DNA from: Thermodesulfobacteriota bacterium
GTDB lineage: Bacteria; Desulfobacterota_D; UBA1144; Nemesobacterales; Mycalebacteriaceae
Assembly (NCBI GenBank): GCA_965198945.1
Contig: CBDAQI010000001.1
Span: 4,521 to 68,520, forward strand
DNA length: 64,000 nt
Direction: 5' to 3'
This document shows positions 2,292-28,535 of this stretch, in pieces. Positions within the stretch are counted from its first letter, which is position 1; every line of letters starts with the position of its first letter. A program made the position numbers and the translations under genes. The notes beneath the pieces are model-generated. The model was not told the DNA's origin, ran no database searches, and saw only the letters and a list, made by a program, of their open reading frames with translations.

Positions 2292-3080
2292 TTAATTGCC
2301 GGAACTTTCAGGGGATGCGGGAAACAGAAAGAAACTCATTTTTTCTTTCTCGCGCTTTCCAATCCGCTCTGACAACTGCCTGTTTGAATCAAACTTTTCG
2401 CCGTCAGCTCTGCTGAAGCGTATATCAAAGCTCAAACGGCCCTCGTGCGAAAAAGGCCACGGGTCAACCGAGTAAGAGTTCTCACAGACCGCTTTGAGTT
2501 TTATTGTTTTCTCCCCTCCGTTTTCAAGGGGAATGTCTTTTATTTCAAAACTCTCCCATCCGTGACAAAGCACGAGTGAAACTGCGTCTCCAGTCTGGAG
2601 AAGTTTTAATTCTTTCCGAATACGGCCTGAAATAAGCTCCGTGCTTTCCACACCAAGAGTCTTTTTCACCAATTCCTCTATCTCTGCTTTCAGGGCAAGA
2701 GACCAGTCGTTTTGTCCGCGGGACAGCACCCTGTCATTAAATTTTTTGAAATGAAGCGCGATCAGAGCGCTCGCATATGGGTGAGTGCCTATATGCCCGC
2801 CGAATGACTTTCTCCATATTTCAGTCTGTCGGGGCGGGGAGACTTCGGTAAAATCCTCCGGCTCGCCTCCGGGGTTGAGAGAGGGGCTGCCGTCGGTCTC
2901 CCGCCATCCCGAATCGTGCTCGGCAATGGCAAAAAGAAGTTCCGCGGCGGGATCGGGAAAAAAAAATCCGCCGCCCCAGAAACTCATTATCCGGGCGGAA
3001 AGTTTTGCATGGTCGTCCTGTGTGAACAAAAGCCATCCGCCGCCGGATTTTCTGCGAACCATAGAAAGCAAGAATAACAC
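2292..3080 (-). CDS. Hypothetical protein
   Basis: 262-aa ORF with coding-like composition and no recognisable motif. Confidence 0.5.
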   Translation of the reverse strand: MLFLLSMVRRKSGGGWLLFTQDDHAKLSARIMSFWGGGFFFPDPAAELLFAIAEHDSGWRETDGSPSLNPGGEPEDFTEVSPPRQTEIWRKSFGGHIGTHPYASALIALHFKKFNDRVLSRGQNDWSLALKAEIEELVKKTLGVESTELISGRIRKELKLLQTGDAVSLVLCHGWESFEIKDIPLENGGEKTIKLKAVCENSYSVDPWPFSHEGRLSFDIRFSRADGEKFDSNRQLSERIGKREKEKMSFFLFPASPESSGN

Positions 3081-3274
3081 AACATTGGCAAAGTCCAGAG
3101 GCGAAAAGACTTTGCGTAAAAGCGCCCGGATGTTTGAAGGAGATATGAATGGATATTTTCTGAATTAAATGAAAAACGGGGCGATGGGCCGCTTACCGGA
3201 AAATTTGTAAATTCATTATGTAAAAGTCCCCGCAACCCGCCATCTTTTCTCCAGCAACAGGCATAATAGAGAAC

Positions 3275-7588: not shown

Positions 7589-9298
7589 TCAGGTGTTTCC
7601 TTTCGGGGTTTTTTCCATCATTTTCCTCATCGGCTCGGTAATAAAATAAGTCGCCGGGCTTATGGCATCAGGGTCGGTTCGGACGTTCACAACATATGGG
7701 TTTTTTGAATTAAACGCATTTTTAAGAGCGCCCTCAAGTTCTCCTAATTTTGACACAAATTCACCCCCTCCTCCCATGGATTCGGCAATTTTATGAAAGG
7801 GAACTTCTCCGAGAACAACTCCGTCAAGCGGCGCCTTTTCACCATATGTAATGCGGATTTGATTTCTTGTCATTCCCCAGGATGAGTCGTTACAAACGAC
7901 AATCACAACAGGCAAATTATGCCTCACCGCGGTTTCAAACTCCATAAAATTCATGCCGAGCGCTCCGTCCCCCGTTATCAATATCACCCTATTTTCCGGA
8001 CGTGCCGCTTTAACGCCGAGCGCAAAAGGAAGCCCCACACCCATACAGCCGAGTGGCCCTCCCTTAATGTATCCGCCCGGAATTTCCACACGGCATGAAA
8101 CGTCTGTCCAGGCCTGACAGTCCCCGCCGTCGGGAATAAAAATCGCCGACGGCGGAGCGGCTTTATTAACCGCCTCAACAAGTGAGACCGGATGAATGGC
8201 GCCTTTCTTTGAAGACGAGTTTTTTGTCCCAAAAAAAATACGAGAGTTTTTAGCGGAAACATTTTTTATCCGCTCCGTCCATTTTTCAAAAACGGGCGGG
8301 GATTTTTTTATTTCACGATTTAATTTTTTCAAAGTCGCACGCACATCCGCGACAACGGGTATATCCGCATTCCTGTTTCTGCCTATTTCCCCCGGCTCTA
8401 TGTCAATCTGGACTATTTTCGCTTTTTTATTGAATGTTTTTCCAAAACCCATAAAAACTCCCGCACGAACGCCCGCAAGCAAAATAAAATCCGCCTTTTC
8501 CGTCGCCTCGGAAAACCCGAAGGGTGAGGACGGACTCGCGGGACCGAAACAAAACGGGGAAGAATCGGGAATAATTCCCCTGCCGAGATGCAGTGTGAAA
8601 AAAGGAGCGCGGACTGTTTTTGAAAGAATTGACAGTTCACTCCCGGCTCCCGAATAAAACGCCCCGCTTCCGGCTATGAAAACCGGTTTTTTCGCGGAGC
8701 GGATATTTTCAGAAATTTTTCTTATTATTTCATCCGAGGGTTCGGGGTTTTGGATTTCAGAAAAATCAGGCTCTTCCGTTTCTCCGGGCGAGCAAAACGG
8801 ATAAAGAACTTCGTAAGACATTCCGAGGTAAACCGGCCCGGGCCTTCCGGTTTTTGCGGCCCGCCATGCATCCGTCACATAGCGCGGAATCCTGGCGGTT
8901 TCATAAACCGTTCTGACCCATTTTGCCACAGGTCGGGCAATTGCCTCCTGGTTAATTTCCTGCAGAGAAAGCCGGTCGTTTTCTTCTATTCCCGACCTGC
9001 CCGAAATTACAACAAGCGGTGAGTTGGCGAGAAATGAAACCGCCATACCCGTAACGGTGTTCGTAAATCCCGGCCCGGCTGTTACGAGACACACCGCGGG
9101 CTCCCCGGTTGAGCGCGCATATGCGTCGGCGGCCATTGCGGCTCCCTGCTCATTGCGGGTGTCCAAAAGGCGTATGCCAAGCTCAGAACAAGCCTTGTAA
9201 ACCGGGTTGATATGTCCGCCGCCGAGAGTGAACACATTTCTCACACCCAGTTTAAAGAGAGTTTCCGCAAGCAAACGTCCTCCCTGTTTGTCTGTCAT
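7589..9298 (-). CDS. Thiamine-pyrophosphate-dependent enzyme (acetolactate synthase large subunit-like family)
   Basis: 569 aa with N-terminal TPP-pyrimidine domain (GGGHINPVY...AAMAADAYAR...LVTAGPGFTN) and C-terminal TPP-binding GDG...N motif. Confidence 0.85.
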   Translation of the reverse strand: MTDKQGGRLLAETLFKLGVRNVFTLGGGHINPVYKACSELGIRLLDTRNEQGAAMAADAYARSTGEPAVCLVTAGPGFTNTVTGMAVSFLANSPLVVISGRSGIEENDRLSLQEINQEAIARPVAKWVRTVYETARIPRYVTDAWRAAKTGRPGPVYLGMSYEVLYPFCSPGETEEPDFSEIQNPEPSDEIIRKISENIRSAKKPVFIAGSGAFYSGAGSELSILSKTVRAPFFTLHLGRGIIPDSSPFCFGPASPSSPFGFSEATEKADFILLAGVRAGVFMGFGKTFNKKAKIVQIDIEPGEIGRNRNADIPVVADVRATLKKLNREIKKSPPVFEKWTERIKNVSAKNSRIFFGTKNSSSKKGAIHPVSLVEAVNKAAPPSAIFIPDGGDCQAWTDVSCRVEIPGGYIKGGPLGCMGVGLPFALGVKAARPENRVILITGDGALGMNFMEFETAVRHNLPVVIVVCNDSSWGMTRNQIRITYGEKAPLDGVVLGEVPFHKIAESMGGGGEFVSKLGELEGALKNAFNSKNPYVVNVRTDPDAISPATYFITEPMRKMMEKTPKGNT

Positions 9299-9352
9299 GA
9301 CAACTATTCTACAGAAACAATCACCGAAAAACCGGAATGTTCAAAAAAGTCG

Positions 9353-9380
9353 TTGAAACAAGAGAAACCGTTCCTATATT
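9353..9380 (+). promoter_or_regulatory. Candidate sigma70-type promoter for hsp20
   Basis: TTGAAA (9353-9358), 16-nt spacer, TATATT (9375-9380), followed by the AGGAGG RBS at 9401-9406. Confidence 0.3.
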
Positions 9381-9414
9381 AAAGTTGCGATCAATAACAA
9401 AGGAGGTGAAAAAA

Positions 9415-9843
9415 ATGAGCGCATTAAGACTTTGGGAGCCATTCAACATGTTCAGAGATTTTGACGACGCGCTTGAAAATTTCGGCGTGTTTCCCTCTGG
9501 CGCAGTTGAAAAGACTTTGAGTCCAAGGGCCGATGTCGCGGAAACGGACAAGGCATATGAAATAACTCTTGAAGTTTCGGGGGTGGAAGGGAAAGACCTG
9601 ACCCTTGAAGTTATGGGAGATGTCCTTACCGTGGGCGGCGAAAAAAAGTTTGAGGAAAAGAAGGAAGGGAAAAACTACTTAACGGTTGAAAGACACTATG
9701 GAAAATTTTCCCGCAGATTCAATCTTCCAGAAAACACGGACACAAAAGGCATTAAAGCCGACAGCAAAAACGGCATACTGACCATAACGGTTCCGAAAAC
9801 TCAGGTTGAAGAGCAAAAACCTCTGAAAATTGAGGTGAACTAG
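9415..9843 (+). CDS. Hsp20/alpha-crystallin family small heat-shock protein
   Basis: AGGAGG sits 8 nt before the ATG at 9415. 142 aa with an alpha-crystallin domain (...GILTITVPK...). The longer ORF starting at 9337 has no RBS. Confidence 0.9.
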   Translation: MSALRLWEPFNMFRDFDDALENFGVFPSGAVEKTLSPRADVAETDKAYEITLEVSGVEGKDLTLEVMGDVLTVGGEKKFEEKKEGKNYLTVERHYGKFSRRFNLPENTDTKGIKADSKNGILTITVPKTQVEEQKPLKIEVN

Positions 9844-17238: not shown

Positions 17239-18300
17239 ATGGCACAGACTATCAAATTCGGGCTTTCAGCACCCATGCCCGGAGCGGACGCCGCCGGACT
17301 CCTTGAATTTTCAAAAAAAGCGGACAAGCTCGGTTTTGACACTATCTGGTATCCGGACCACACGGTTTTTGTGGCTCCGGGAGCGACGGCGCCCGAGGCA
17401 TGGACAATAGCTTCGGCGGCGGCGGGAATTACATCAAACATACAGCTCGGAACGGTTTCAGATCCTCACAAAATATATCCCTCAACATTCGCCCAGCGGC
17501 TTGCCACAATTGACCATCTTTCCAAAGGAAGGGTTACAATCGCAATGGGAGTGGGCGAATCAATGAACCTTGACGCCTACGGCATTCCGTGGAACAAGCC
17601 TTTCACAAGAATGAAAGAAGCGGTTGAGGTTATGCAGTTGCTTTGGAAAAACGACGAGCACAGCCCTGTCAACTACAATGGCGAGTTCTTCAAGCTGCAG
17701 GACGCATTCTTGCAAATGCGGCCTTTTGAGCGCGACAGAATTCCCGTTTATTTCGCCACTCACACACCCAAGGGTCTTGCACTCACCGGGAAGGTTGGAG
17801 ACGGCTGGCTGCCTATTGATTTGAACCCGTCGCTTTACGAAAAATATCTGGGGGAAATACACTCGGCCGCAGACGGTGCCGGAAGAGACAGAGACGAGAT
17901 TGACCCCGCCCTGTGGGTTTTCACCTCACTTGGAGAAAATGATGATGAAGCATACAAAGCGATTGAGCCGTTCAAGTATGTGCTGATTATGCAGGAACAG
18001 TTGGAGGCGGCGGGTTACGATGTGAAAATTCCCGATGAATACAAGGGGCTGAACTACTTCAACATAGTCCCTCAAGACACTGAGGGCAGGGCAAAATTCC
18101 GCGAAATCGGGCGGTTTTTCCCGCGCGAGGCCATTATGGACTTCACAATCACCGGTTCAAAAGATGACTGCATAAAAAGGATTGAAAATTTTATAGACAA
18201 GGGCGTGAGAAATTTTGTGCTTTTCTACCGTTTCAGCCCCGACCCCGAAAAAGCGCTTGAAACCTACGCGAAGGAGATAATTCCTTATTTTAAAGGCTGA
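17239..18300 (+). CDS. LLM-class flavin/F420-dependent oxidoreductase (methylene-H4MPT reductase-like)
   Basis: 353 aa; ...GFDTIWYPDHT...MGVGESMN..., LLM family. Divergently transcribed from the other LLM gene. Confidence 0.85.
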   Translation: MAQTIKFGLSAPMPGADAAGLLEFSKKADKLGFDTIWYPDHTVFVAPGATAPEAWTIASAAAGITSNIQLGTVSDPHKIYPSTFAQRLATIDHLSKGRVTIAMGVGESMNLDAYGIPWNKPFTRMKEAVEVMQLLWKNDEHSPVNYNGEFFKLQDAFLQMRPFERDRIPVYFATHTPKGLALTGKVGDGWLPIDLNPSLYEKYLGEIHSAADGAGRDRDEIDPALWVFTSLGENDDEAYKAIEPFKYVLIMQEQLEAAGYDVKIPDEYKGLNYFNIVPQDTEGRAKFREIGRFFPREAIMDFTITGSKDDCIKRIENFIDKGVRNFVLFYRFSPDPEKALETYAKEIIPYFKG

Positions 18301-18714: not shown

Positions 18715-19874
18715 TCGCCATTGTAGTATACATCTTGGAAATCAATATATAGCAATCGGAAAAACACTTCCCCAACCGGAGAGATATGGCGCATTTATAC
18801 CAGAAAGCGCATGTGATATTGAGTTTCAGTTTACACCTGAAACTGTAAAAAAAGCGCATGATACTGCTCTTGCAGTTGGCAAATTGGATGGAATCAGTCG
18901 GTTGCTGCCCGACATAGATTTTTTCCTTTTGATGTATATCCGCAAGGACGCCACCTCTTCAAGCAATATTGAGGGAACCAAAGCAACGCTGATTGAAAGC
19001 ATTGAGCAGGAAGCAAAGGTATCAAGTGAACTCCCCCGATGATGTTTCGGACATCACTTAGTATATAAAAGCGATGAACAAGGGTTTTGAAAACCTGGAG
19101 CAGATTCCAGTCAGCAATCGTTTCATACGGCTTCTACACAAGGAACTTATGGAGGGCGGAAGGGAGTCTCACTATTCGGACCCCGGAAACTTCCGCACCT
19201 CGCAGAACTGGATAGGAGGCAAATCTCTGCGGGAGGCAAGTTTTGTGCCGCCGCCACCGTCCGAAGTGCTGAGAGCAATGGGAGATCTGGAGAAATTCAT
19301 ACACAGGCGGGACAACATTCTGCCAATAATCAAGGCGGGAATTATCCACTCTCACTTTGAGACGATACATCCCTTTCTTGACGGAAACGGCAGAACGGGA
19401 AGGTTGCTGATAACCTTTTTCCTGAACAAGGAGGGTTTGCTGGAAAAACCCATTTTGTTTCTTTCCTCATTTTTTATAGAACACCGCCAATATTATTACG
19501 ACTGTTTAATATCGTATCATAATGGCGATTATACAAAGTGGATTGATTTCTTTTTGAACGGCGTTACCGAGACCGCAAATAAGTCAATAAAAACCGCAAA
19601 CAAAATCGTGGGAATACGCGAGCGGGATATGAAAAAGATTTCCGGCCTGTCAAAAAGAGCATCCCAAACGGCTTTGAAAATATATCCAAATCTTTTTGCA
19701 TTGCCGATTGTCAATACTACAAAAATAATGGAGTGGGGCGGTCTGACCCGCGCCGGAGCACAGAGTGTTGTGAACCGCTTCATTAAAATGGACATCCTAA
19801 AATCCAGAGACCCGGATAAAACCTACGGACGGTCTTATGTGTATGAGGAGTATTTGAGGGTTTTTGCGAATTGA
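18715..19874 (+). pseudogene. fic: Fic/Doc-family gene remnant: the N-terminal region is separated from the Fic core ORF by an in-frame stop and a frame discontinuity
   Basis: ORF 19074-19874 carries the Fic motif IHPFLDGNGRTGRLL. Upstream, without a start codon, frame A (18715-19032) encodes the Fic N-terminal signature ...LDGISRLLPDIDFFLLMYIRKDATSSSNIEGTKATLIESIEQEAKVSSELPR*. The next segment (PDDVSDIT-TAG-YIKAMNKGF...) has an in-frame TAG 15 nt before the ATG at 19074. Between the two segments the frame apparently changes at a C5 run. The sequence line covering 19021-19080 displayed only 5 ten-base blocks to me, so exact coordinates of the frame change there are uncertain by up to 10 nt. 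Confidence 0.6.
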
Positions 19875-20003
19875 AATACATTTATTGTGGGAAAGAAGAA
19901 AATGAAAGTAATTGAAGAAAATATATTGACTTGCAGAAGTTGCGGCTTAACCGACTGGCAAAGGCGTTTTATGGTAAAATCATTTTTCAACACGGGGAAT
20001 GTA

Positions 20004-20745
20004 TGGAAATGAATAAAGCATTAAGTCTTTTTCCAAACAGTTACAGGAGCAAAATAGAAATATCTCAAGGCAACTGTTTCTCTCTGATTCAAAAGATGGA
20101 AGACAACTGTGTTGACTTGATAGCAACAGACCCTCCTTATGAAATAAATTTTGAGGATAACTATTGGGACAAACCAAACACTCTGAACTGGGACTATTTG
20201 GCAAAAGAATTTAAAAGAGTTTTAAAACCCAATGGGGCTTTAATAATTTTTCAGGGTTGGTCTCAAGTCTGTGAAACCAAAGCAGTGTTGGACAAACATT
20301 TTCTTTTAAAAACTGGATTATTTATGACAGAATTAAGGGGAGAGGGGCAAAAACAAACGTAGTCTCAACCCGGGAAGACATCCTTTGGTATGTGGCAGAT
20401 GAAAAAGACTACACTTTTCACAAAATAGACTCCGCCATTAAGAAAAAAACGGGCGGAATGGGAAGAAAAAACGGCAGCATTTACAGAGCACTTTCAAACG
20501 TTTGGACTGACGTTCCTCCTTTAGTTCCGTGGGGAGAAGAAAAAGTTCCACACCCGACACAAAAACCCATTTTTATTATGAAACGAATAATAGAAATATT
20601 TTCCAACGAAAACGACCTTGTTTTAGACCCCTTCATAGGCAGTGGAACAACCGCTCTTGCATGCAAAGAAACAAACAGAAACTGTGTGGGTTTTGAATTA
20701 GACGAAAACTATTACCGACTTTGCCAGAAAAGATTCAATGATTGA
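20004..20745 (+). pseudogene. Beta-class DNA (N6-adenine/N4-cytosine) methyltransferase, DPPY motif; split by a 1-nt frame change
   Basis: ORF 19931-20362 has motif IV DLIATDPPYEI. ORF 20392-20745 has motif I LDPFIGSGTTALAC...GFELDENYY. The second frame is open back to 20275 and encodes SFKNWIIYDRIKGRGAKTNVVSTREDILWYVADEKDY..., the expected continuation. The frame change lies in the T/A runs at about 20298-20314. The likely start is the ATG at 20004 (MEMNKAL), downstream of an extended -10 TGgTAAAAT. Confidence 0.65.
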
Positions 20746-21004
20746 CAAGTTTAGAATAGGCATGACAAAATTACGAAAGAAATGTAGCGGCAGGGGGAAT
20801 GAAAAACAAATCCGCCGTTGGATAACGCCAAAGGCCTCTGGATTCAAATAAAAGCCGACTTGAAAGAGTTAAAACGTAGATCCAAGGATTGAGAGTTATA
20901 AAAACACGGATAAGTGTTGCATTGAAAGTTACTATACGGATATAATACAGAGTTGTTCAAGTCTTCTTAAGGAATTACCATTCTGATTCGCAGAGTCAGG
21001 AAGA

Positions 21005-22143
21005 ATGTTCAAAGAAATAACACTTCCTGTAGAGTCACTCTCAAACGCAGATAAAAACCTCGTCCAGCAGTTCAATCAGTACTTCAAAACTGATGACGTA
21101 AAGATTGTTCCTAACGGAAAATCCATTGAAGTCCAATTAAGGCAGGTTGACTTCTCTTTGATGGAGAAAGTTGTAGCCGACTTGACAGAATCAGCAAAAG
21201 ACAACAACCCGCTTACCATAACATTGGATGCCATAAGAAACATTAAAAGTTACAGTTTGAAGGGGAAAAAAAGGATTTATGTCGGCTATAACAAAGAAAG
21301 AAAAGTAAAAAACCGTGCCGAGAAGGAAAAACAAAGAGGTAAATATTTCTACGCAAAAGGGCATTCTTTCAAGAAAACAAACAACAAAGTGCCCAAGGAG
21401 TTTGTTGATAAAATTGTCTGCGGAGACAGTGAAAAAATTTTATCAGAAATTCCGGACAACTGCGTTGATATGGTATTGACTTCACCACCTTACAATTTTG
21501 GACTTAACTACAACAACAATAAAAATGACGAACACGACTGGAGAGAATATTTTGAAAAACTTTTTAAAGTTTTTGACCAGTGCGTAAGGGTTCTAAAATA
21601 TGGCGGAAGAATAATAGTTAATGTTCAACCGCTCTTTTCCGACTATATTCCAAGCCATCACATAATCAGTAAATACTTCATGGATAAAAAACTGATATGG
21701 AAGGGGGAAGTCATGTGGGAAAAGAATAACTACAACTGTAAATATACCGCCTGGGGAAGCTGGAAAAGTCCAAGCAATCCCTACCTGAAATACACATGGG
21801 AGTTTATAGAGATATTTTGCAAAGGAGATATGAAAAAGTCGGGAAACTCAAAAAATATAGATATTAGCGCTGACGAATTCAAAAAATGGGTCGTAGGCAA
21901 ATGGTCTGTCGCACCCGAACGTAAAATGAAGCAATATGGACATCCCGCCATGTTTCCCGAAGAAATAGCGAACCGCGCAATAAAACTGTTCAGTTTTAAA
22001 GGTGATTTAATACTTGATCCGTTCAATGGCGCGGGAACTACCACAACAGTTGCAAAAAAACTAGTCGTTCCTATCTGGGCGTAGATATTTCAAAAGATTA
22101 TTGTAAAACTGCAGAAAAAAGAGCAAGAGAGATTCTTTTATGA
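21005..22143 (+). pseudogene. Beta-class N4-cytosine/N6-adenine DNA methyltransferase (SPPY motif) with a ~130-aa N-terminal extension; C-terminus frameshifted at an A7 tract
   Basis: Motif IV VLTSPPYNFG and motif I LDPFNGAGTTTTVAKK. The ORF stops at 22084. An 8th A in the A7 run (22054-22060) would restore ...VAKKTSRSYLGVDISKDYCKTAEKRAREILL* ending at TGA 22141-22143, which is the canonical MTase C-terminus. Confidence 0.65.
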
Positions 22144-22808
22144 GTAAAGTGGGCTTCTCTCCTGAAGTTGAAAAAATCTTGGATGAAATCATAGAGGAAT
22201 ATGACCGCATTTTTCAAAATGTTCAGGGCAAAGCTCTGCAAGACTCAGAAAACAGGGCTTATGGTGGCGTAATCAGGTCTACAGTAGGCGGTTTCGTAGA
22301 ATGGATGACAAAACGCTTGGTTGTAGCTACATGGCTCACACTTGGCCAAAATCAAACTTCACTTAACTTCAAGAGCGGAAAATATAAACTCCCAATACTT
22401 CAACAATATGTTGACAATATAGAAATTCCAGAGGTTAAAAAACAAATCCAAGACAACATCGGCGACTACACCTACGGAATAGGACAAGATGTCCATGTTT
22501 ATGAAGAAGACGATTTTATTCTTTCAATTGAGTGCAAAGCGTATGCAGAAAACGCAATGCTAAAAAGAATCATTGTAGATTGCTGGTTTCTTCAAAAATT
22601 ATTTCCAACTTTGAAATTCGCTCTTATCCAACTGGAAAGCCAATTAACGGGAGATTATCACGAGTTAAATGAAATAACTTTTGGAAGCAAATCATCTCAT
22701 ACAATAATGTCTTATTTCGATGTTGATTTAAAGATAATAACACTGCTCAAGGGAGCGCGAAAAGTGAAAGAGCCAATACACAAATCAAGATTTTATAAAA
22801 CCTTATAA
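22140..22808 (+). CDS. Candidate type II restriction endonuclease (PD-(D/E)XK-like motif)
   Basis: The 222-aa ORF overlaps the restored MTase stop as ATGA. GIGQDVHVYEEDDFILSIECKAY fits a D...(D/E)xK nuclease core. Position and coupling match an R-M operon. There is no family-level recognition. Confidence 0.45.
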   Translation: MSKVGFSPEVEKILDEIIEEYDRIFQNVQGKALQDSENRAYGGVIRSTVGGFVEWMTKRLVVATWLTLGQNQTSLNFKSGKYKLPILQQYVDNIEIPEVKKQIQDNIGDYTYGIGQDVHVYEEDDFILSIECKAYAENAMLKRIIVDCWFLQKLFPTLKFALIQLESQLTGDYHELNEITFGSKSSHTIMSYFDVDLKIITLLKGARKVKEPIHKSRFYKTL

Positions 22809-22895: not shown

Positions 22896-23387
22896 TCACT
22901 CCCCTTCCAGCACAACAAGCACCGCGCCGCCTTCAACCGCGTCGCCTTCTTTTACTTTAATTTCTTTGATTTTTCCGGCCACGGACGCTTTTAATTCGCT
23001 TTCCATTTTCATCGCTTCAACAACAATCACACCCTCGTCGGTTTTGACCGAATCGCCTTCTTTTTTGAGTATTTTCACAACCCTGCTCGGCATCGGAGAG
23101 GAAATCTGCAAACCGCCGCCCTCTCCACCCGCAGACGATTCCCTTCCGGTGATTGATTCAAACTCATACAGTGTCCCTTCACAGAACACCTGAATTTTTT
23201 TGCCTTTTTTCACCACCCCGGCCGTAAAAGAGCCGTTCTTTTCGCAAACTATTGAAACAAGAGCGGGGTCAAGTCTTGCAAAGTCAACCTCTGAGGAAAA
23301 ATCGTCCGTCTCAACAACGGCGCGGCCGTCCTTATCTTCAATATTGACGCGAAACCTTTCATCACCGAGTTTAAGAATGTATTTCAC
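22896..23387 (-). CDS. Biotin carboxyl carrier protein (biotin/lipoyl attachment domain)
   Basis: C-terminal EAMKM biotinylation motif. The GTG at 23387 overlaps the accC stop as TAGTG; the longest ORF would start at the ATG at 23447. Confidence 0.8.
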   Translation of the reverse strand: MKYILKLGDERFRVNIEDKDGRAVVETDDFSSEVDFARLDPALVSIVCEKNGSFTAGVVKKGKKIQVFCEGTLYEFESITGRESSAGGEGGGLQISSPMPSRVVKILKKEGDSVKTDEGVIVVEAMKMESELKASVAGKIKEIKVKEGDAVEGGAVLVVLEGE

Positions 23388-24898
23388 TAGCCGCCACCCT
23401 CGTATCCGCCCCTTAAAACGCCCGCTCTGCGGGAAAAACTCTTCCAACCGGAAGCCGCCTTCAGTTTGCCGGTTTCCTGTTTCTCAACGGAACCCCCAAA
23501 ATGAAGCGCAAGAGCGGCGGCAACAGCCGCTTTTTGGCTGCCTTCCCGTCCGGCACTGAGGAGCTCCGGATGCCTGTCTATAAATCCCGTGTCTATTTCG
23601 GCTTTCATAAACTCCTCATTGCGCATAACGCGAATAAGGAAACCGATATTGGTTTTTGTGCCAAGAACCATGTATTCGCCAAGTGCGGCGGCCATTTTGT
23701 TTATCGCCTGTTCGCGCGTCTCAGCCCATACGGCAAGCTTTGAAAGCATCGGGTCATAAAACGATGTAACTTCGCAACCGCTGAAAATAGCCGAATCATC
23801 CCTGATACCGGGGCCGTCGGGCGTCTTCACATAATAAATCGGTCCGGGAGCCGGAAGAAAATTCATCTCCGGATCCTCGGCGTATATTCTGCATTCAACT
23901 GCATGACCGTTCAATTTTAGGTCTGACTGCTTGAACGGAAGTTTTTCACCGGCCGCTATCCTTATCATCCATTTTACGATGTCAAAACCCGTTACCATCT
24001 CAGTTACCGGATGCTCAACCTGTATGCGCGTGTTCATCTCAAGAAAATAGAAGTCCTGCTCCGCATCCATTATGAACTCAACGGTTCCGGCGCCCTTGTA
24101 TGAAACCGCTTTGGATATGTTCACGGCCACCTCGCCCATTTTTTTGCGCGTTGAGGCCGAAATAAATCCCGAAGGCGCCTCTTCTATAACCTTCTGGTGC
24201 CTGCGCTGAATTGAACATTCGCGCTCAAAAAGATGCAAAACATTGCCGTGTCCGTCCGCGATGATCTGAATTTCAATATGGCGAGGCTTTTGAACGAAAC
24301 GCTCTATGAAAACCGAATCGTCTCCAAAAGCCGAAAGCGCCTCGCTTTTTGCCATCCTGAGCGAGCTTTCAAACTCCGCCGGGTCGTGAACAAGGCGCAT
24401 TCCCTTTCCACCGCCGCCCGCAGACGCTTTTATCATAAGCGGATAGCCAATCTCTCCCGCCACATTCTTGGCCTCACTGTCGCTCACGGCCCCTTTGGAG
24501 CCCGGAACAAGCGGAACTTTGGCTTTTACGGCTATGTTTCTCGCGGTGATTTTGTCTCCCATCTGACTGATGGTTTCAGCCGAAGGCCCTATGAAAACTA
24601 TTCCCGCCTTCTCACACGCACGGGCAAAATCCTCTTTTTCGGAGAGAAAACCGAAACCGGGATGAACGGCTTCAGCGCCCGTTTTTTTACAGACGTCTAT
24701 TATTTTTTCAATAACAAGGTAGCTTTCAGCCGGTTTTGAGCCGCCTATATGAACGGCTTCATCGGCAAGAGCAACGTGCATTGCCCCTCTGTCGGCATCC
24801 GAGTAGACGGCAACCGTGGCGATTTTCATCTCACGGCAGGCTCTTATTATCCTTACCGCTATCTCACCTCTGTTTGCTACCAGTATTTTGCCGAACAT
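23387..24898 (-). CDS. accC: Biotin carboxylase subunit of an acyl-CoA carboxylase
   Basis: 503 aa; MFGKILVANRGEIAVRIIRA... ATP-grasp biotin carboxylase. Confidence 0.95.
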   Translation of the reverse strand: MFGKILVANRGEIAVRIIRACREMKIATVAVYSDADRGAMHVALADEAVHIGGSKPAESYLVIEKIIDVCKKTGAEAVHPGFGFLSEKEDFARACEKAGIVFIGPSAETISQMGDKITARNIAVKAKVPLVPGSKGAVSDSEAKNVAGEIGYPLMIKASAGGGGKGMRLVHDPAEFESSLRMAKSEALSAFGDDSVFIERFVQKPRHIEIQIIADGHGNVLHLFERECSIQRRHQKVIEEAPSGFISASTRKKMGEVAVNISKAVSYKGAGTVEFIMDAEQDFYFLEMNTRIQVEHPVTEMVTGFDIVKWMIRIAAGEKLPFKQSDLKLNGHAVECRIYAEDPEMNFLPAPGPIYYVKTPDGPGIRDDSAIFSGCEVTSFYDPMLSKLAVWAETREQAINKMAAALGEYMVLGTKTNIGFLIRVMRNEEFMKAEIDTGFIDRHPELLSAGREGSQKAAVAAALALHFGGSVEKQETGKLKAASGWKSFSRRAGVLRGGYEGGG

Positions 24899-26563: not shown

Positions 26564-26773
26564 TTATGACCAGACGAGCGAGAGGTCTCGTTGCGAAGAC
26601 ACGCAATCTTTCAGATACAGATTGATAAGACTTTGGTAGGGGATGCCCTTTTCTTCCGCAAGTTTCTTAAAATAGGCGACTGTATCCTCATCCAGACGGA
26701 TTGTAATTTGTTTCTTTAGCCGTTTGGCGTAATGGTTCTTTCTGGACTTTGAGAAATCGTAGTTTTTACGCAT
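26564..26773 (-). CDS. brnA: BrnA antitoxin (CopG/RHH-like, COG3514)
   Basis: MRKNYDFSKSRKNHYAKRLKKQITIRLDEDTVAYFKKLAEEKGIPYQSLINLYLKD. Overlaps the brnT stop by 8 nt. The longer ORF to 26890 is probably spurious. Confidence 0.7.
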   Translation of the reverse strand: MRKNYDFSKSRKNHYAKRLKKQITIRLDEDTVAYFKKLAEEKGIPYQSLINLYLKDCVSSQRDLSLVWS

Positions 26774-27062
26774 TGATATACTCCTCATACTGCTTTTTCT
26801 CCCGTGAGTTCGCCTTGCGGGCTGAAATAATGCGGATGGTGTTTCCGTTACTCTCGCAGTGACAAACCACGAGCAGACGCAATCTGTCACTCACTCCTAT
26901 CATAACAAAACTCTCCTCTCCTTTTTCAGAGTGGTCGGGGTCTCTGATGATTCGCGCAAACTCGTCATTAAAAACCGAGCGGGTTTTTTCAAAAGAAACA
27001 CGGTGTTTTTTCCTATTTGACACATTTTTCTTCGCATCCCACTCAAAGCTAATGCCTTGCAT
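26766..27062 (-). CDS. brnT: BrnT toxin (DUF497 ribonuclease, COG2929)
   Basis: 98 aa; MQGISFEWDAKKNVSNRKKHRVSFEKTRSVFNDEF...VMIGVSDRLRLLVVCHCESNGNTIRIISARKA, a BrnT signature. Confidence 0.75.
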   Translation of the reverse strand: MQGISFEWDAKKNVSNRKKHRVSFEKTRSVFNDEFARIIRDPDHSEKGEESFVMIGVSDRLRLLVVCHCESNGNTIRIISARKANSREKKQYEEYINA

Positions 27063-27162: not shown

Positions 27163-27903
27163 TCAGGGATTATTGGTTTGCATCAGTCGGGGCTTTTGCT
27201 CCCGAAACCAGTTGTAAAAGCGTTCCGCATCCGAAAACAGCGGCGGATTTGCGCTCCGTTGAAGATAACCATTTTTGACACGAAGTCCGCCCCATTTCTC
27301 CAAAAGCGGTTTTGTGACGCGGTAGGAGTGTTTTCTGAATTCGCCGATTGGTATGTATTTGGCGAGGCGGCCGGACTTTTCCCGCTTACCCCTTACAACA
27401 ATGTCTGTCGGCTCCGGCGGAGAGTTGCGTGTGTGGGCGTTTTCATCCCATCTTGACTGCGGAATATTATCCGCACGAACAATTTCTTTCACAGTCAGCA
27501 AACCGATGAGTGCGTAGACGAGTTTGTCGTCCGTTACGGATTTAAGTCCCGCAAAGAAAACTACCATATCGTTTTCTTCAAAAGTCTGAAGATATTTGCC
27601 TCTTTTTTCCGTGTCGCCGTAGGTAAGGTTTTCAAAATCGGGATCAAGGTGCATACACTCGTCGGCCAGATTTCCGGGAAGGAAAACTTCGCAACCGTTG
27701 CGCTCTGAAAAACCCGCGAGCGCGGGAACTATCGTATCAGCGTAGCATTTTTCCATTCCGGCAACATTGGCGACCTTTGTCTGCTTTATAGGCACATAGA
27801 CGAAGTCGCCCGTCTCAGGATTGCACGGAGCGTTCCAGTTGCCCGAACTTGCGGTTTGGTCAATTCCGACACGGATCAGTATTGCTTTCATTCCGGCTGA
27901 CAC
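27163..27903 (-). CDS. Hypothetical protein, paralog B of an uncharacterised Cys-containing pair
   Basis: 246 aa. Shares ILIRVGID...GNWNAPCNPETGDFVYVPI and ...GLKSV...KLVYALIGLLTVKEIV blocks with the adjacent upstream protein. Confidence 0.55.
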   Translation of the reverse strand: MSAGMKAILIRVGIDQTASSGNWNAPCNPETGDFVYVPIKQTKVANVAGMEKCYADTIVPALAGFSERNGCEVFLPGNLADECMHLDPDFENLTYGDTEKRGKYLQTFEENDMVVFFAGLKSVTDDKLVYALIGLLTVKEIVRADNIPQSRWDENAHTRNSPPEPTDIVVRGKREKSGRLAKYIPIGEFRKHSYRVTKPLLEKWGGLRVKNGYLQRSANPPLFSDAERFYNWFREQKPRLMQTNNP

Positions 27904-28535
27904 TGCATTACGGCATTGTCTTCCGCTTCGTTACACTTTTTGCTCTTTTCCAAATGAATTGGGTTGCCGTGCCTGCCGCAGCCGTATTCTTTCAATATGC
28001 ACTCTATGTATTTTTTCAGTTTTTGATAATTCTCCGCCTTATTCTGATGTGAGCGTGTCAATTTTTCGTAAATATCCCCTATTTTCTCTATTTGAGTTTT
28101 TTTATTGCTATCGCCAAAATACGCGAAGCAATTACTGACAAGACAAAATGCCCTGTTGTATTCTTCTGGTTCACCCAGATCGGTTTCAAGTTTTTCTGCG
28201 GAATGATACTGAGCGTTATTTCTGAATTTATATTTTTTACCTGTCCATTCATAAATACAGTCAGGGCGATTCCAATACTCGCTTCCCGATGAATAGTAAT
28301 CCTTTCCACTAATAACTTTCTCAACCCGCATAACATAAATCAAGCGGTCTTTTAATTCTGCTACGGACTTGCCGCCCACTCCAATAATCCAATTACCCTT
28401 TTCTGCTGTTGTGCGTATTTTGGGTTTGCAAATGCACAGCGAAATCAACCCATCTTCAACACAAGGCGCACCGCCGTTATCGCAAGTCAATTTATAAATA
28501 AAAATTTTCGATTCTATCGTGTCCATTGTTCCCAC
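27888..28535 (-). CDS. Hypothetical Cys-rich protein, paralog A of an uncharacterised pair
   Basis: 215 aa; KIFIYKLTCDNGGAPCVEDGLISLCICKP...GGKSVAELKDRLIYVMRVEKVI. The C-terminal half is AT-rich and Lys-rich. Overlaps the coaE stop; an alternative start is at 28526. Confidence 0.55.
   Translation of the reverse strand: MGTMDTIESKIFIYKLTCDNGGAPCVEDGLISLCICKPKIRTTAEKGNWIIGVGGKSVAELKDRLIYVMRVEKVISGKDYYSSGSEYWNRPDCIYEWTGKKYKFRNNAQYHSAEKLETDLGEPEEYNRAFCLVSNCFAYFGDSNKKTQIEKIGDIYEKLTRSHQNKAENYQKLKKYIECILKEYGCGRHGNPIHLEKSKKCNEAEDNAVMQCQPE

Follow-up and report, generated by a model that had tools for sequence, protein, structure and literature searches.

In the 64,000-nucleotide stretch of DNA analysed here (the window), two consecutive genes of the minus strand raise the question of whether they form a genuinely undescribed system, as the original prediction put it, in which an enzyme and its inactive paralogue would act next to a toxin-antitoxin (TA) module. 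The prediction described two minus-strand open reading frames of 215 and 246 aa overlapping by 16 nt, in agreement with the ORF list, where the frames 27888..28535 (215 aa) and 27163..27903 (246 aa) both open with GTG. Start codons were nevertheless chosen from homologues, with exact database matches of 212 and 242 aa, and most N-termini in the alignments of the two families fall at about the same positions. The upstream gene, which belongs to the Nmad2 family, was thus placed at 27888..28526 (212 aa from the ATG at 28526; alternative GTG start at 28535), and the downstream gene, of the Nmad3 family, at 27163..27891 (242 aa from the ATG at 27891; alternative GTG start at 27903). With these starts, the gene overlap becomes a 4-nt ATGA at 27888..27891 on the minus strand, in which, from the DNA and the homologue N-termini, the Nmad2 stop codon TGA (27890-27888) runs into the Nmad3 start codon ATG (27891-27889). 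Such an overlap suggests translational coupling of the two genes.

On the minus strand, the genes are arranged in the order grx, gltX, coaE, Nmad2, Nmad3, a gap of 100 nt, BrnT, BrnA, and the acetyl/propionyl-CoA carboxylase (ACC) genes. The 3' end of coaE, whose product matches Pfam CoaE, overlaps the start of Nmad2 by 13 nt (28514..28526, minus strand), the coaE stop codon TAG being read from the DNA at 28516-28514. Because these stop and start codons overlap, co-transcription of the pair with coaE is likely in this lineage. The TA module, which spans 26564..27062 on the minus strand, 100 nt downstream of Nmad3, consists of a BrnT toxin gene (26766-27062; Pfam BrnT_toxin, E = 2.1e-24) and a BrnA antitoxin gene (26564-26773; Pfam BrnA_antitoxin, E = 6.2e-10). 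A scan for promoters and terminators returned a number of sites not above chance.

The two proteins had been described as members of an unknown family, which proved wrong, since both lie far above the Pfam gathering thresholds. The upstream protein matched Nmad2 (PF18753) with 105.5 bits (E = 3.4e-30; threshold 26.1) in an alignment of near full length (residues 9-197 on model positions 2-198 of 200), and the downstream protein matched Nmad3 (PF18754) with 75.7 bits (E = 5.8e-21; threshold 27), a match that, in the close homologues as well, covers only model positions 1-188 of 247. The two names stand for "nucleotide modification associated domains" and, to our knowledge, no function has been experimentally tested for either of these catalogued families. 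Every protein returned by the homologue searches carried an Nmad2 or an Nmad3 domain, some close homologues are publicly named "Nmad3 family putative nucleotide modification protein", and the nearest relatives were found in Candidatus Mycalebacterium and Dadabacteria. Searches of NCBIfam and of PDB sequences with both proteins gave nothing useful, a PADLOC v2.0.0 search gave no match at E ≤ 1 for either, and PHROGs contained one partial Nmad3 match, to a family of unknown function. The only match among TA families, to TscA (E = 0.096), is noise, and a toxin or antitoxin nature of these proteins was accordingly not upheld. Judged by the profile scores, the window proteins are ordinary members of Nmad2 and Nmad3, and we regard the identity and architecture of the pair as very nearly certain.

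Alignment with 40 homologues showed that the window Nmad2, which is of the GGAPC subtype, keeps the motifs D-x-G-G-A-P-C, C-K-P-x-I-R, R-P-D-C-I-Y, and Y-H. The residues D16, G18, A20, P21, C22, C33 (in C-K-P-x-I-R), R38, R87, D89, C90, Y92, and H108 are invariant in the family, and C198 is nearly so. The window Nmad3 retains 46 of the 46 invariant alignment columns, including HLDPDF, YGD, NAHTR, SGR, and QRS; the family-invariant motifs are R7, D11, W19, H81-L-D-P-D-F86, Y91-G-D93, N151-A-H-T-R155, S173-G-R175, Y190-R191, W200-G201, and R212-S213.

The AF2 models were confident for both proteins (pLDDT 93.8 for Nmad3 and 88.3 for Nmad2) and, in a fold search, both could be superposed on solved members of the PUA-like pseudo-barrel class, YqfB, an N4-acetylcytidine (ac4C) amidohydrolase of ASCH fold, being among the matches. 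Nmad2 and Nmad3 are predicted with high confidence to be PUA-like beta-barrels of the EVE/YTH/ASCH/McrB-N type. Searches with the Pfam models EVE, YTH, ASCH, and PUA returned no match at E ≤ 1 for either protein. Characterised proteins use the PUA-like fold to hold a modified base that has been flipped out; in enzymes of the ASCH type, the fold processes the base as well. The earlier guess at a nucleotide-modifying enzyme fits both the family names and this reader fold.

The paralogy proposed for the pair was not borne out by sequence comparison. Pairwise BLASTP of Nmad2 against Nmad3 found no significant homology (E = 13), and a profile-profile comparison of 40-sequence alignments by hhalign reached a probability of 4% (E = 0.01) over 25 columns, a stretch that covers only the GD-hhh-G...LhY block. 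The three collinear blocks on which the proposal relied are thus not significant by sequence, and the identical KSV of block 2 is conserved in neither family. Within each of the two families, the D...APC and GD-hhh-G...LhY motifs are conserved, and blocks 1 and 3 lie on equivalent core strands of the two AF2 models (block 1, E3-7 and E21-24 versus E8-13 and E22-24; block 3, E109-118 and E124-139 versus E46-51 and E62-73). Since these strands are equivalent in models of the same fold, a distant superfamily-level relationship is plausible, and this structural part of the proposal stands. As modelled, Nmad2 and Nmad3 are ancient, separate families that belong to one fold class and not the products of a recent duplication. 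A large set of polar residues is invariant in each family, and the two sets differ, so that neither protein resembles an inactive copy, contrary to the idea of an enzyme paired with its inactive paralogue.

The distribution of the pair was analysed in other genomes. With each species represented by one genome, a pattern scan detected Nmad3 in 202 genomes, patchily distributed over many phyla; among those that the record titles name are Poribacteria, Thermodesulfobacteriota, Gamma-, Beta-, and Alphaproteobacteria, Acidobacteriota, Planctomycetota, Verrucomicrobiota, Myxococcota, and Chloroflexi. With 1,043 of the 1.84 billion clusters formed at 50% identity, the family is a small one. Of 85 non-duplicate Nmad3 loci, 71 have one of three partner genes adjacent on the same strand, namely Nmad2 or a member of two further families, named X (~158 aa) and C (~210 aa) here, neither of which matched any Pfam model. 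Nmad2 lies directly beside Nmad3, in either order, in 25 loci, X in 15, and C in 32, five of these 32 being fusions of C to Nmad3. No partner was detected in the remaining 14 loci, which are nested within partnered clades of the Nmad3 tree, and partner type largely follows this tree. The three partners have a pattern in common (a beta-strand, a D-P or D-x-G loop, Cys, Arg, and then hhhGhGG), and hhalign found a weak N-terminal similarity between X and Nmad2 (33% probability over 45 columns). Nmad3 is the constant core, and its three Cys-containing partners, Nmad2 among them, exclude one another almost completely; no further gene is linked to the module with any consistency.

Natural fusions of Nmad2 and Nmad3 were found in both orders, with Nmad2 first in L009 and P0258 and Nmad3 first in P0260, which links the two proteins. 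Distances within the two families also co-vary over the paired loci (Mantel r = 0.47, a value reached in 0 of 2000 permutations). No nuclease or other effector was fused to the module, no nuclease was a recurrent neighbour in the 85 loci, and 10 long homologues contained no Pfam domain besides Nmad2. Together, Nmad2 and Nmad3 are a conserved, self-contained two-component genetic module. One gene may nevertheless occur without the other (Nmad3 in the 14 loci without a partner, Nmad2 in locus L093), so that a heteromer is not obligatory.

The position between coaE and the ACC carboxyltransferase gene was compared among close relatives. This slot holds Nmad2-Nmad3-BrnTA in the window, an Nmad2 of a different subtype followed by X and Nmad3 in L083, X-Nmad3 in L086, Nmad3 alone in L001, and Nmad2 alone in L093. 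These five cassette states reflect rapid turnover at one site. The arrangement in which the cassette is appended to gltX-coaE also occurs in L083, L086, and L093, and a further locus, L091, has an Nmad2-Nmad3 pair beside an ACC carboxyltransferase gene in a different arrangement. As a family-wide partner, coaE was rejected; its linkage is lineage-specific, and the operon with coaE that had been predicted is thus likely here but is not a family feature. BrnTA was likewise rejected as a partner of the module, and the TA module as its functional context, because BrnT recurs in only one of 85 other Nmad3 loci and BrnTA is not present in the closest relatives (L001, L083, L086, and L093).

A different genomic link emerged from the same loci. 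Ten of about 83 Nmad3 loci lie on the same strand inside or beside type I restriction-modification (R-M) operons (hsdM/hsdR); they come from unrelated phyla and include all three partner types. Families of type I REase, MTase, and S subunits were the top PADLOC matches among the 293 nearest neighbours, and type I R-M genes were the only recurrent neighbours family-wide. We infer that the frequency of this adjacency is well above chance. Partly in line with the prediction, the family thus has a non-random link to defence loci, but it is type I R-M operons rather than TA modules that provide it. About 88% of the loci are not beside recognisable defence genes, and the window copy lies neither inside nor beside a type I R-M, BREX, or DISARM operon.

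A search of phage genomes by tblastn returned nothing for either protein, a fold search in BFVD gave nothing significant, and IMG/VR contained one locus. A phage origin of Nmad2 and Nmad3 was thus rejected, the genes being essentially absent from phages. Distant Nmad2 genes on plasmids adjoin TIR genes, in operons of the types TIR-Nmad2-MazG-UDG and TIR-Nmad2-kinase-radical SAM.

The pair was also compared with known systems. PUA-like readers comprise EVE proteins (PH1033, THYN1, VcaM4I), YTH proteins (YTHDC1, Mmi1), ASCH proteins, and the N-terminal domain of McrB; Nmad3 is about 100 residues larger than these, and its invariant His/Asp/Arg motifs are peculiar to it. In VcaM4I and McrBC, a nuclease or GTPase is attached to the reader, whereas Nmad2 and Nmad3 have none, and more generally modification-dependent restriction enzymes have a nuclease or NTPase effector, fused or adjacent, while the window pair is without either. 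YqfB and EOLA1, N4-acetylcytidine amidohydrolases of ASCH fold, have the PUA-like fold in common with Nmad2 and Nmad3 and possess catalytic residues; catalysis in these two enzymes provides a precedent for a reader fold working as a modified-base enzyme.

A second comparison concerns defence genes. Some defence genes, PrrC for example, are embedded in type I R-M operons, and one study (bioRxiv 10.1101/2024.01.29.577857) has used such "guilt by embedding" to nominate defence candidates. Similarly, about 12% of Nmad3 modules lie on the same strand between or beside hsdM and hsdR; the window copy is outside R-M. DS-4 is an E. coli operon of thymidylate synthase (TS), dNMP kinase, 5-hmdU DNA kinase, TIR, and Nmad2 genes for which, as a whole, anti-phage protection was experimentally shown (DefensePredictor, PMC13092281). 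Its Nmad2 is 29% identical to that of the window and is of the APNPF rather than the GGAPC subtype. DS-4 has no Nmad3 and, conversely, the window pair is without TS, dNMP kinase, 5-hmdU DNA kinase, and TIR; its neighbours (gltX, coaE, BrnT/A, and the ACC genes) do not make up a DS-4-type operon.

We give slightly better than even chances to the view that the pair is a conserved two-component PUA-like module that recognises modified bases and has a conflict-related accessory role. The functional reading of the pair is tentative, and we hold it to be somewhat less likely than an even chance. According to this reading, Nmad2 and Nmad3 would form a heteromer that recognises a modified base or nucleotide, whether this occurs in DNA, in RNA, or in the nucleotide pool. 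The invariant His/Asp/Arg set of Nmad3 (HLDPDF, YGD, NAHTR, SGR, and QRS) may serve in ligand or metal binding and perhaps in hydrolysis, and C22, C33, C90, and H108 of Nmad2, with the nearly invariant C198, may form a structural metal site. Biologically, the pair would play an accessory, conflict-related part as a restriction or anti-phage auxiliary, rather than a housekeeping one; it is probably auxiliary to restriction.

Several observations bear on this last point from either side. The R-M loci, the patchy distribution, the turnover of the slot, the Nmad2 of DS-4, and the TIR-linked plasmid Nmad2 genes count for a conflict role. The co-transcription of the window pair with housekeeping genes counts against such a role, as do the empty PADLOC and NCBIfam searches and the roughly 88% of loci that lie away from recognisable defence genes; the missing PUA-clan profile match speaks against the reading as a whole. 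A defence role in particular is weakened by the lack of an effector domain, which leaves no obvious executioner.

A somewhat unlikely variant of the conflict-related reading is that Nmad3 and its interchangeable Cys-rich partner form a system made of PUA-like proteins only, which would act on modified nucleic acid by catalysis in the reader fold, with no separate nuclease. It could be an eraser, a glycosylase, or a modification-dependent cleaver and might, for example, read and remove a hypermodification of phage DNA and thus back up type I restriction.

The other explanations assign the pair to metabolism, to a known pathway, or to the neighbouring TA module. A housekeeping pair, in which an ASCH-type hydrolase expressed with coaE would take as its substrate either modified nucleosides or nucleotides released by RNA turnover or a nucleotide related to CoA, would fit the overlap with coaE, the location that the pair occupies, in the window and in relatives, between gltX-coaE and the ACC genes, and the differently arranged L091 pair beside the ACC carboxyltransferase gene. 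It would also fit a haloarchaeal homologue found near cmk and cbf5, the lack of an effector domain, the presence of ASCH-fold enzymes such as YqfB among the fold matches, and the near absence of the genes from phages. However, the family is rare and patchy over phyla, it has no conserved metabolic neighbour outside one lineage, close relatives differ both in whether they have it and in the type of partner, and some of its loci lie within type I R-M operons, all of which makes a housekeeping function unlikely.

Distinctly improbable, in our view, is a part in a DNA-base hypermodification pathway like DS-4, together with a thymidylate-synthase-like enzyme, nucleotide kinases, and a 5-hmdU DNA kinase. 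The Nmad family names derive from such contexts, plasmid TIR-Nmad2 operons occur with MazG and UDG or with a kinase and radical SAM gene, and the DS-4 operon with its Nmad2 does protect E. coli (PMC13092281), but the partner genes are missing from the window and do not recur at the 85 Nmad3 loci, DS-4 itself contains no Nmad3, and the GGAPC-type Nmad2 of the window is, as noted, only remotely similar to the DS-4 protein. The model from which the analysis started, in which a recently duplicated enzyme/inactive-paralogue pair works with BrnT/BrnA as a toxin-immunity or defence module, is now largely refuted and highly improbable. The genes are indeed adjacent, they encode the same fold, and a TA module lies 100 nt downstream; against this stand the lack of detectable sequence paralogy, the separation into ancient families with their own invariant residues, and BrnTA, which is absent from relatives and whose BrnT recurs in only one of 85 other loci.

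The pair thus consists of new members of the known families Nmad2 and Nmad3 and not of a genuinely undescribed system; its architecture is common within the family and is not categorically new. Literature searches for Nmad2 and Nmad3 returned unrelated acronyms and DefensePredictor only. Relative to this searchable literature, the assignment of the PUA-like fold, the organisation as an Nmad3 core with interchangeable partners, and the link to type I R-M are new here. A role in nucleic-acid modification or against phages is a reasonable proposal for the Nmad2-Nmad3 pair, though an unproven one, and the analysis makes the function of the pair testable by providing a fold, a minimal unit (Nmad3 and one partner), residues, and a type I R-M context. 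If Nmad3 were catalytic, the PUA-like reader fold would gain an enzymatic or immune role that is new for it; if the pair were a housekeeping sanitiser of modified nucleotides, it would add modestly to what is known of nucleotide salvage.

Finally, the upstream gene had been described as Cys-rich, with at least 12 Cys, and AT-rich. We counted 11 Cys in the Nmad2 protein. The C-terminal tail of this protein aligns with other Nmad2 proteins, and a candidate explanation of the tail as the remnant of a fusion to X was rejected for this reason. The low GC content was confirmed, with a GC of 0.397 and a GC3 of 0.413 for the Nmad2 gene versus about 0.50 and about 0.53, respectively, for Nmad3 and the flanking genes.

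Two protein families, named C and X, were found as partners of Nmad3 (PF18754), and neither had a match in Pfam. Family C is a domain of approximately 210 aa with the motifs R.DPfwEfGSFG.TgCH and G.RlAFaQGG, and was encoded immediately 3′ of Nmad3 in 32 of the 85 non-duplicate Nmad3 loci, either as a separate gene, such as that at 8707-9417 of locus L017, or fused to Nmad3, as in L016, L025, L026 (C at 2444-3088), L034, and L039; about 30 further loci carry C besides L017 and L026. Family X is a Cys-rich protein of about 158 aa with the consensus IYkRTH.gDP..G.FG..DCMg.vR...AVIGvGG...WiGI...GPlVtFdHF, and showed weak profile similarity to Nmad2 (PF18753) in the N-terminal region. Its gene adjoins Nmad3 in 15/85 loci, namely L036 (8719-9219), the close-relative loci L083 (7540-8016) and L086 (7543-8016), and 12 others.

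One Nmad3 can also be accompanied by two Nmad2 subtypes, distinguished by their motifs as GGAPC and SPNPF. In L009 (7419-9457), Nmad3 is fused to an SPNPF-type Nmad2 and followed by a separate GGAPC-type Nmad2, the subtype present in the window, and in L083 (6845-8729) the order is SPNPF-type Nmad2, X, and Nmad3. The gene make-up of these two loci points to an equivalence of X with the GGAPC-type Nmad2, and to a role of the SPNPF-type Nmad2 as an additional, third component. The latter is of the same type as the Nmad2 of the E. coli defence operon DS-4.

Single genomes can harbor two Nmad3 modules that differ in make-up, as observed for L004 and L009 (OZ244044.1) and for L027 and L030 (assembly CBDAMS01). 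In one of these genomes, the Acidiferrales MAG, type I R-M genes adjoin both copies of the Nmad3 module. Nmad2 was apparently frameshifted in L071 (8666-9354) and apparently only a fragment in L057 (6501-6707), each time alongside an intact Nmad3, which is consistent with a decay of the partner gene in some lineages.

CoA-related genes recur near the Nmad pair, in different gene orders, in L091 as well as in the window. In L091 (5013-7806), a GGAPC-type Nmad2, 53% identical to that of the window in an alignment of 40 homologues, precedes the beginning of an Nmad3 gene, and the pair again lies immediately 3′ of an acetyl/propionyl-CoA carboxylase (ACC) carboxyltransferase gene. Unlike in the window, the gene order there is a tyrS-like gene, an Fe-S assembly gene, and ACC.

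In the window, an AT-rich island (19000-22808, GC 0.35-0.40) is bordered on one side by the minus-strand BCCP gene (22896-23447) and on the other by the gene of a luciferase-like monooxygenase (17239-18300). It contains a Fic gene (19074-19874), two separate segments of an N6/N4 DNA methyltransferase (19931-20362; 21005-22084), and a 222-aa ORF of unknown kind (22140-22808). In relatives, the matching slot holds RE_Bpu10I and a methyltransferase in L001, McrBC in L083, and GmrSD, Fic, and Pyr_excise in L086. The island looks like a lineage-specific defence hotspot, approximately 4 kb from the Nmad cassette. Directly downstream of Nmad3, a BrnT/BrnA type II toxin-antitoxin pair (26564-27062) was found in none of the close relatives examined; the most probable start codon of BrnA, ATG 26773, gives an 8-nt overlap with the BrnT stop.

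Finally, distant Nmad2 genes were observed in two plasmid operons, resembling predicted systems in the DefensePredictor supplement: TIR-Nmad2-MazG-like NTP pyrophosphohydrolase-uracil-DNA glycosylase on Beijerinckia pBIND01 (L087), and TIR-Nmad2-nucleotide kinase-radical SAM in Parabacteroides (L088). Integrases adjoin both operons, and a toxin-antitoxin module also adjoins the former.
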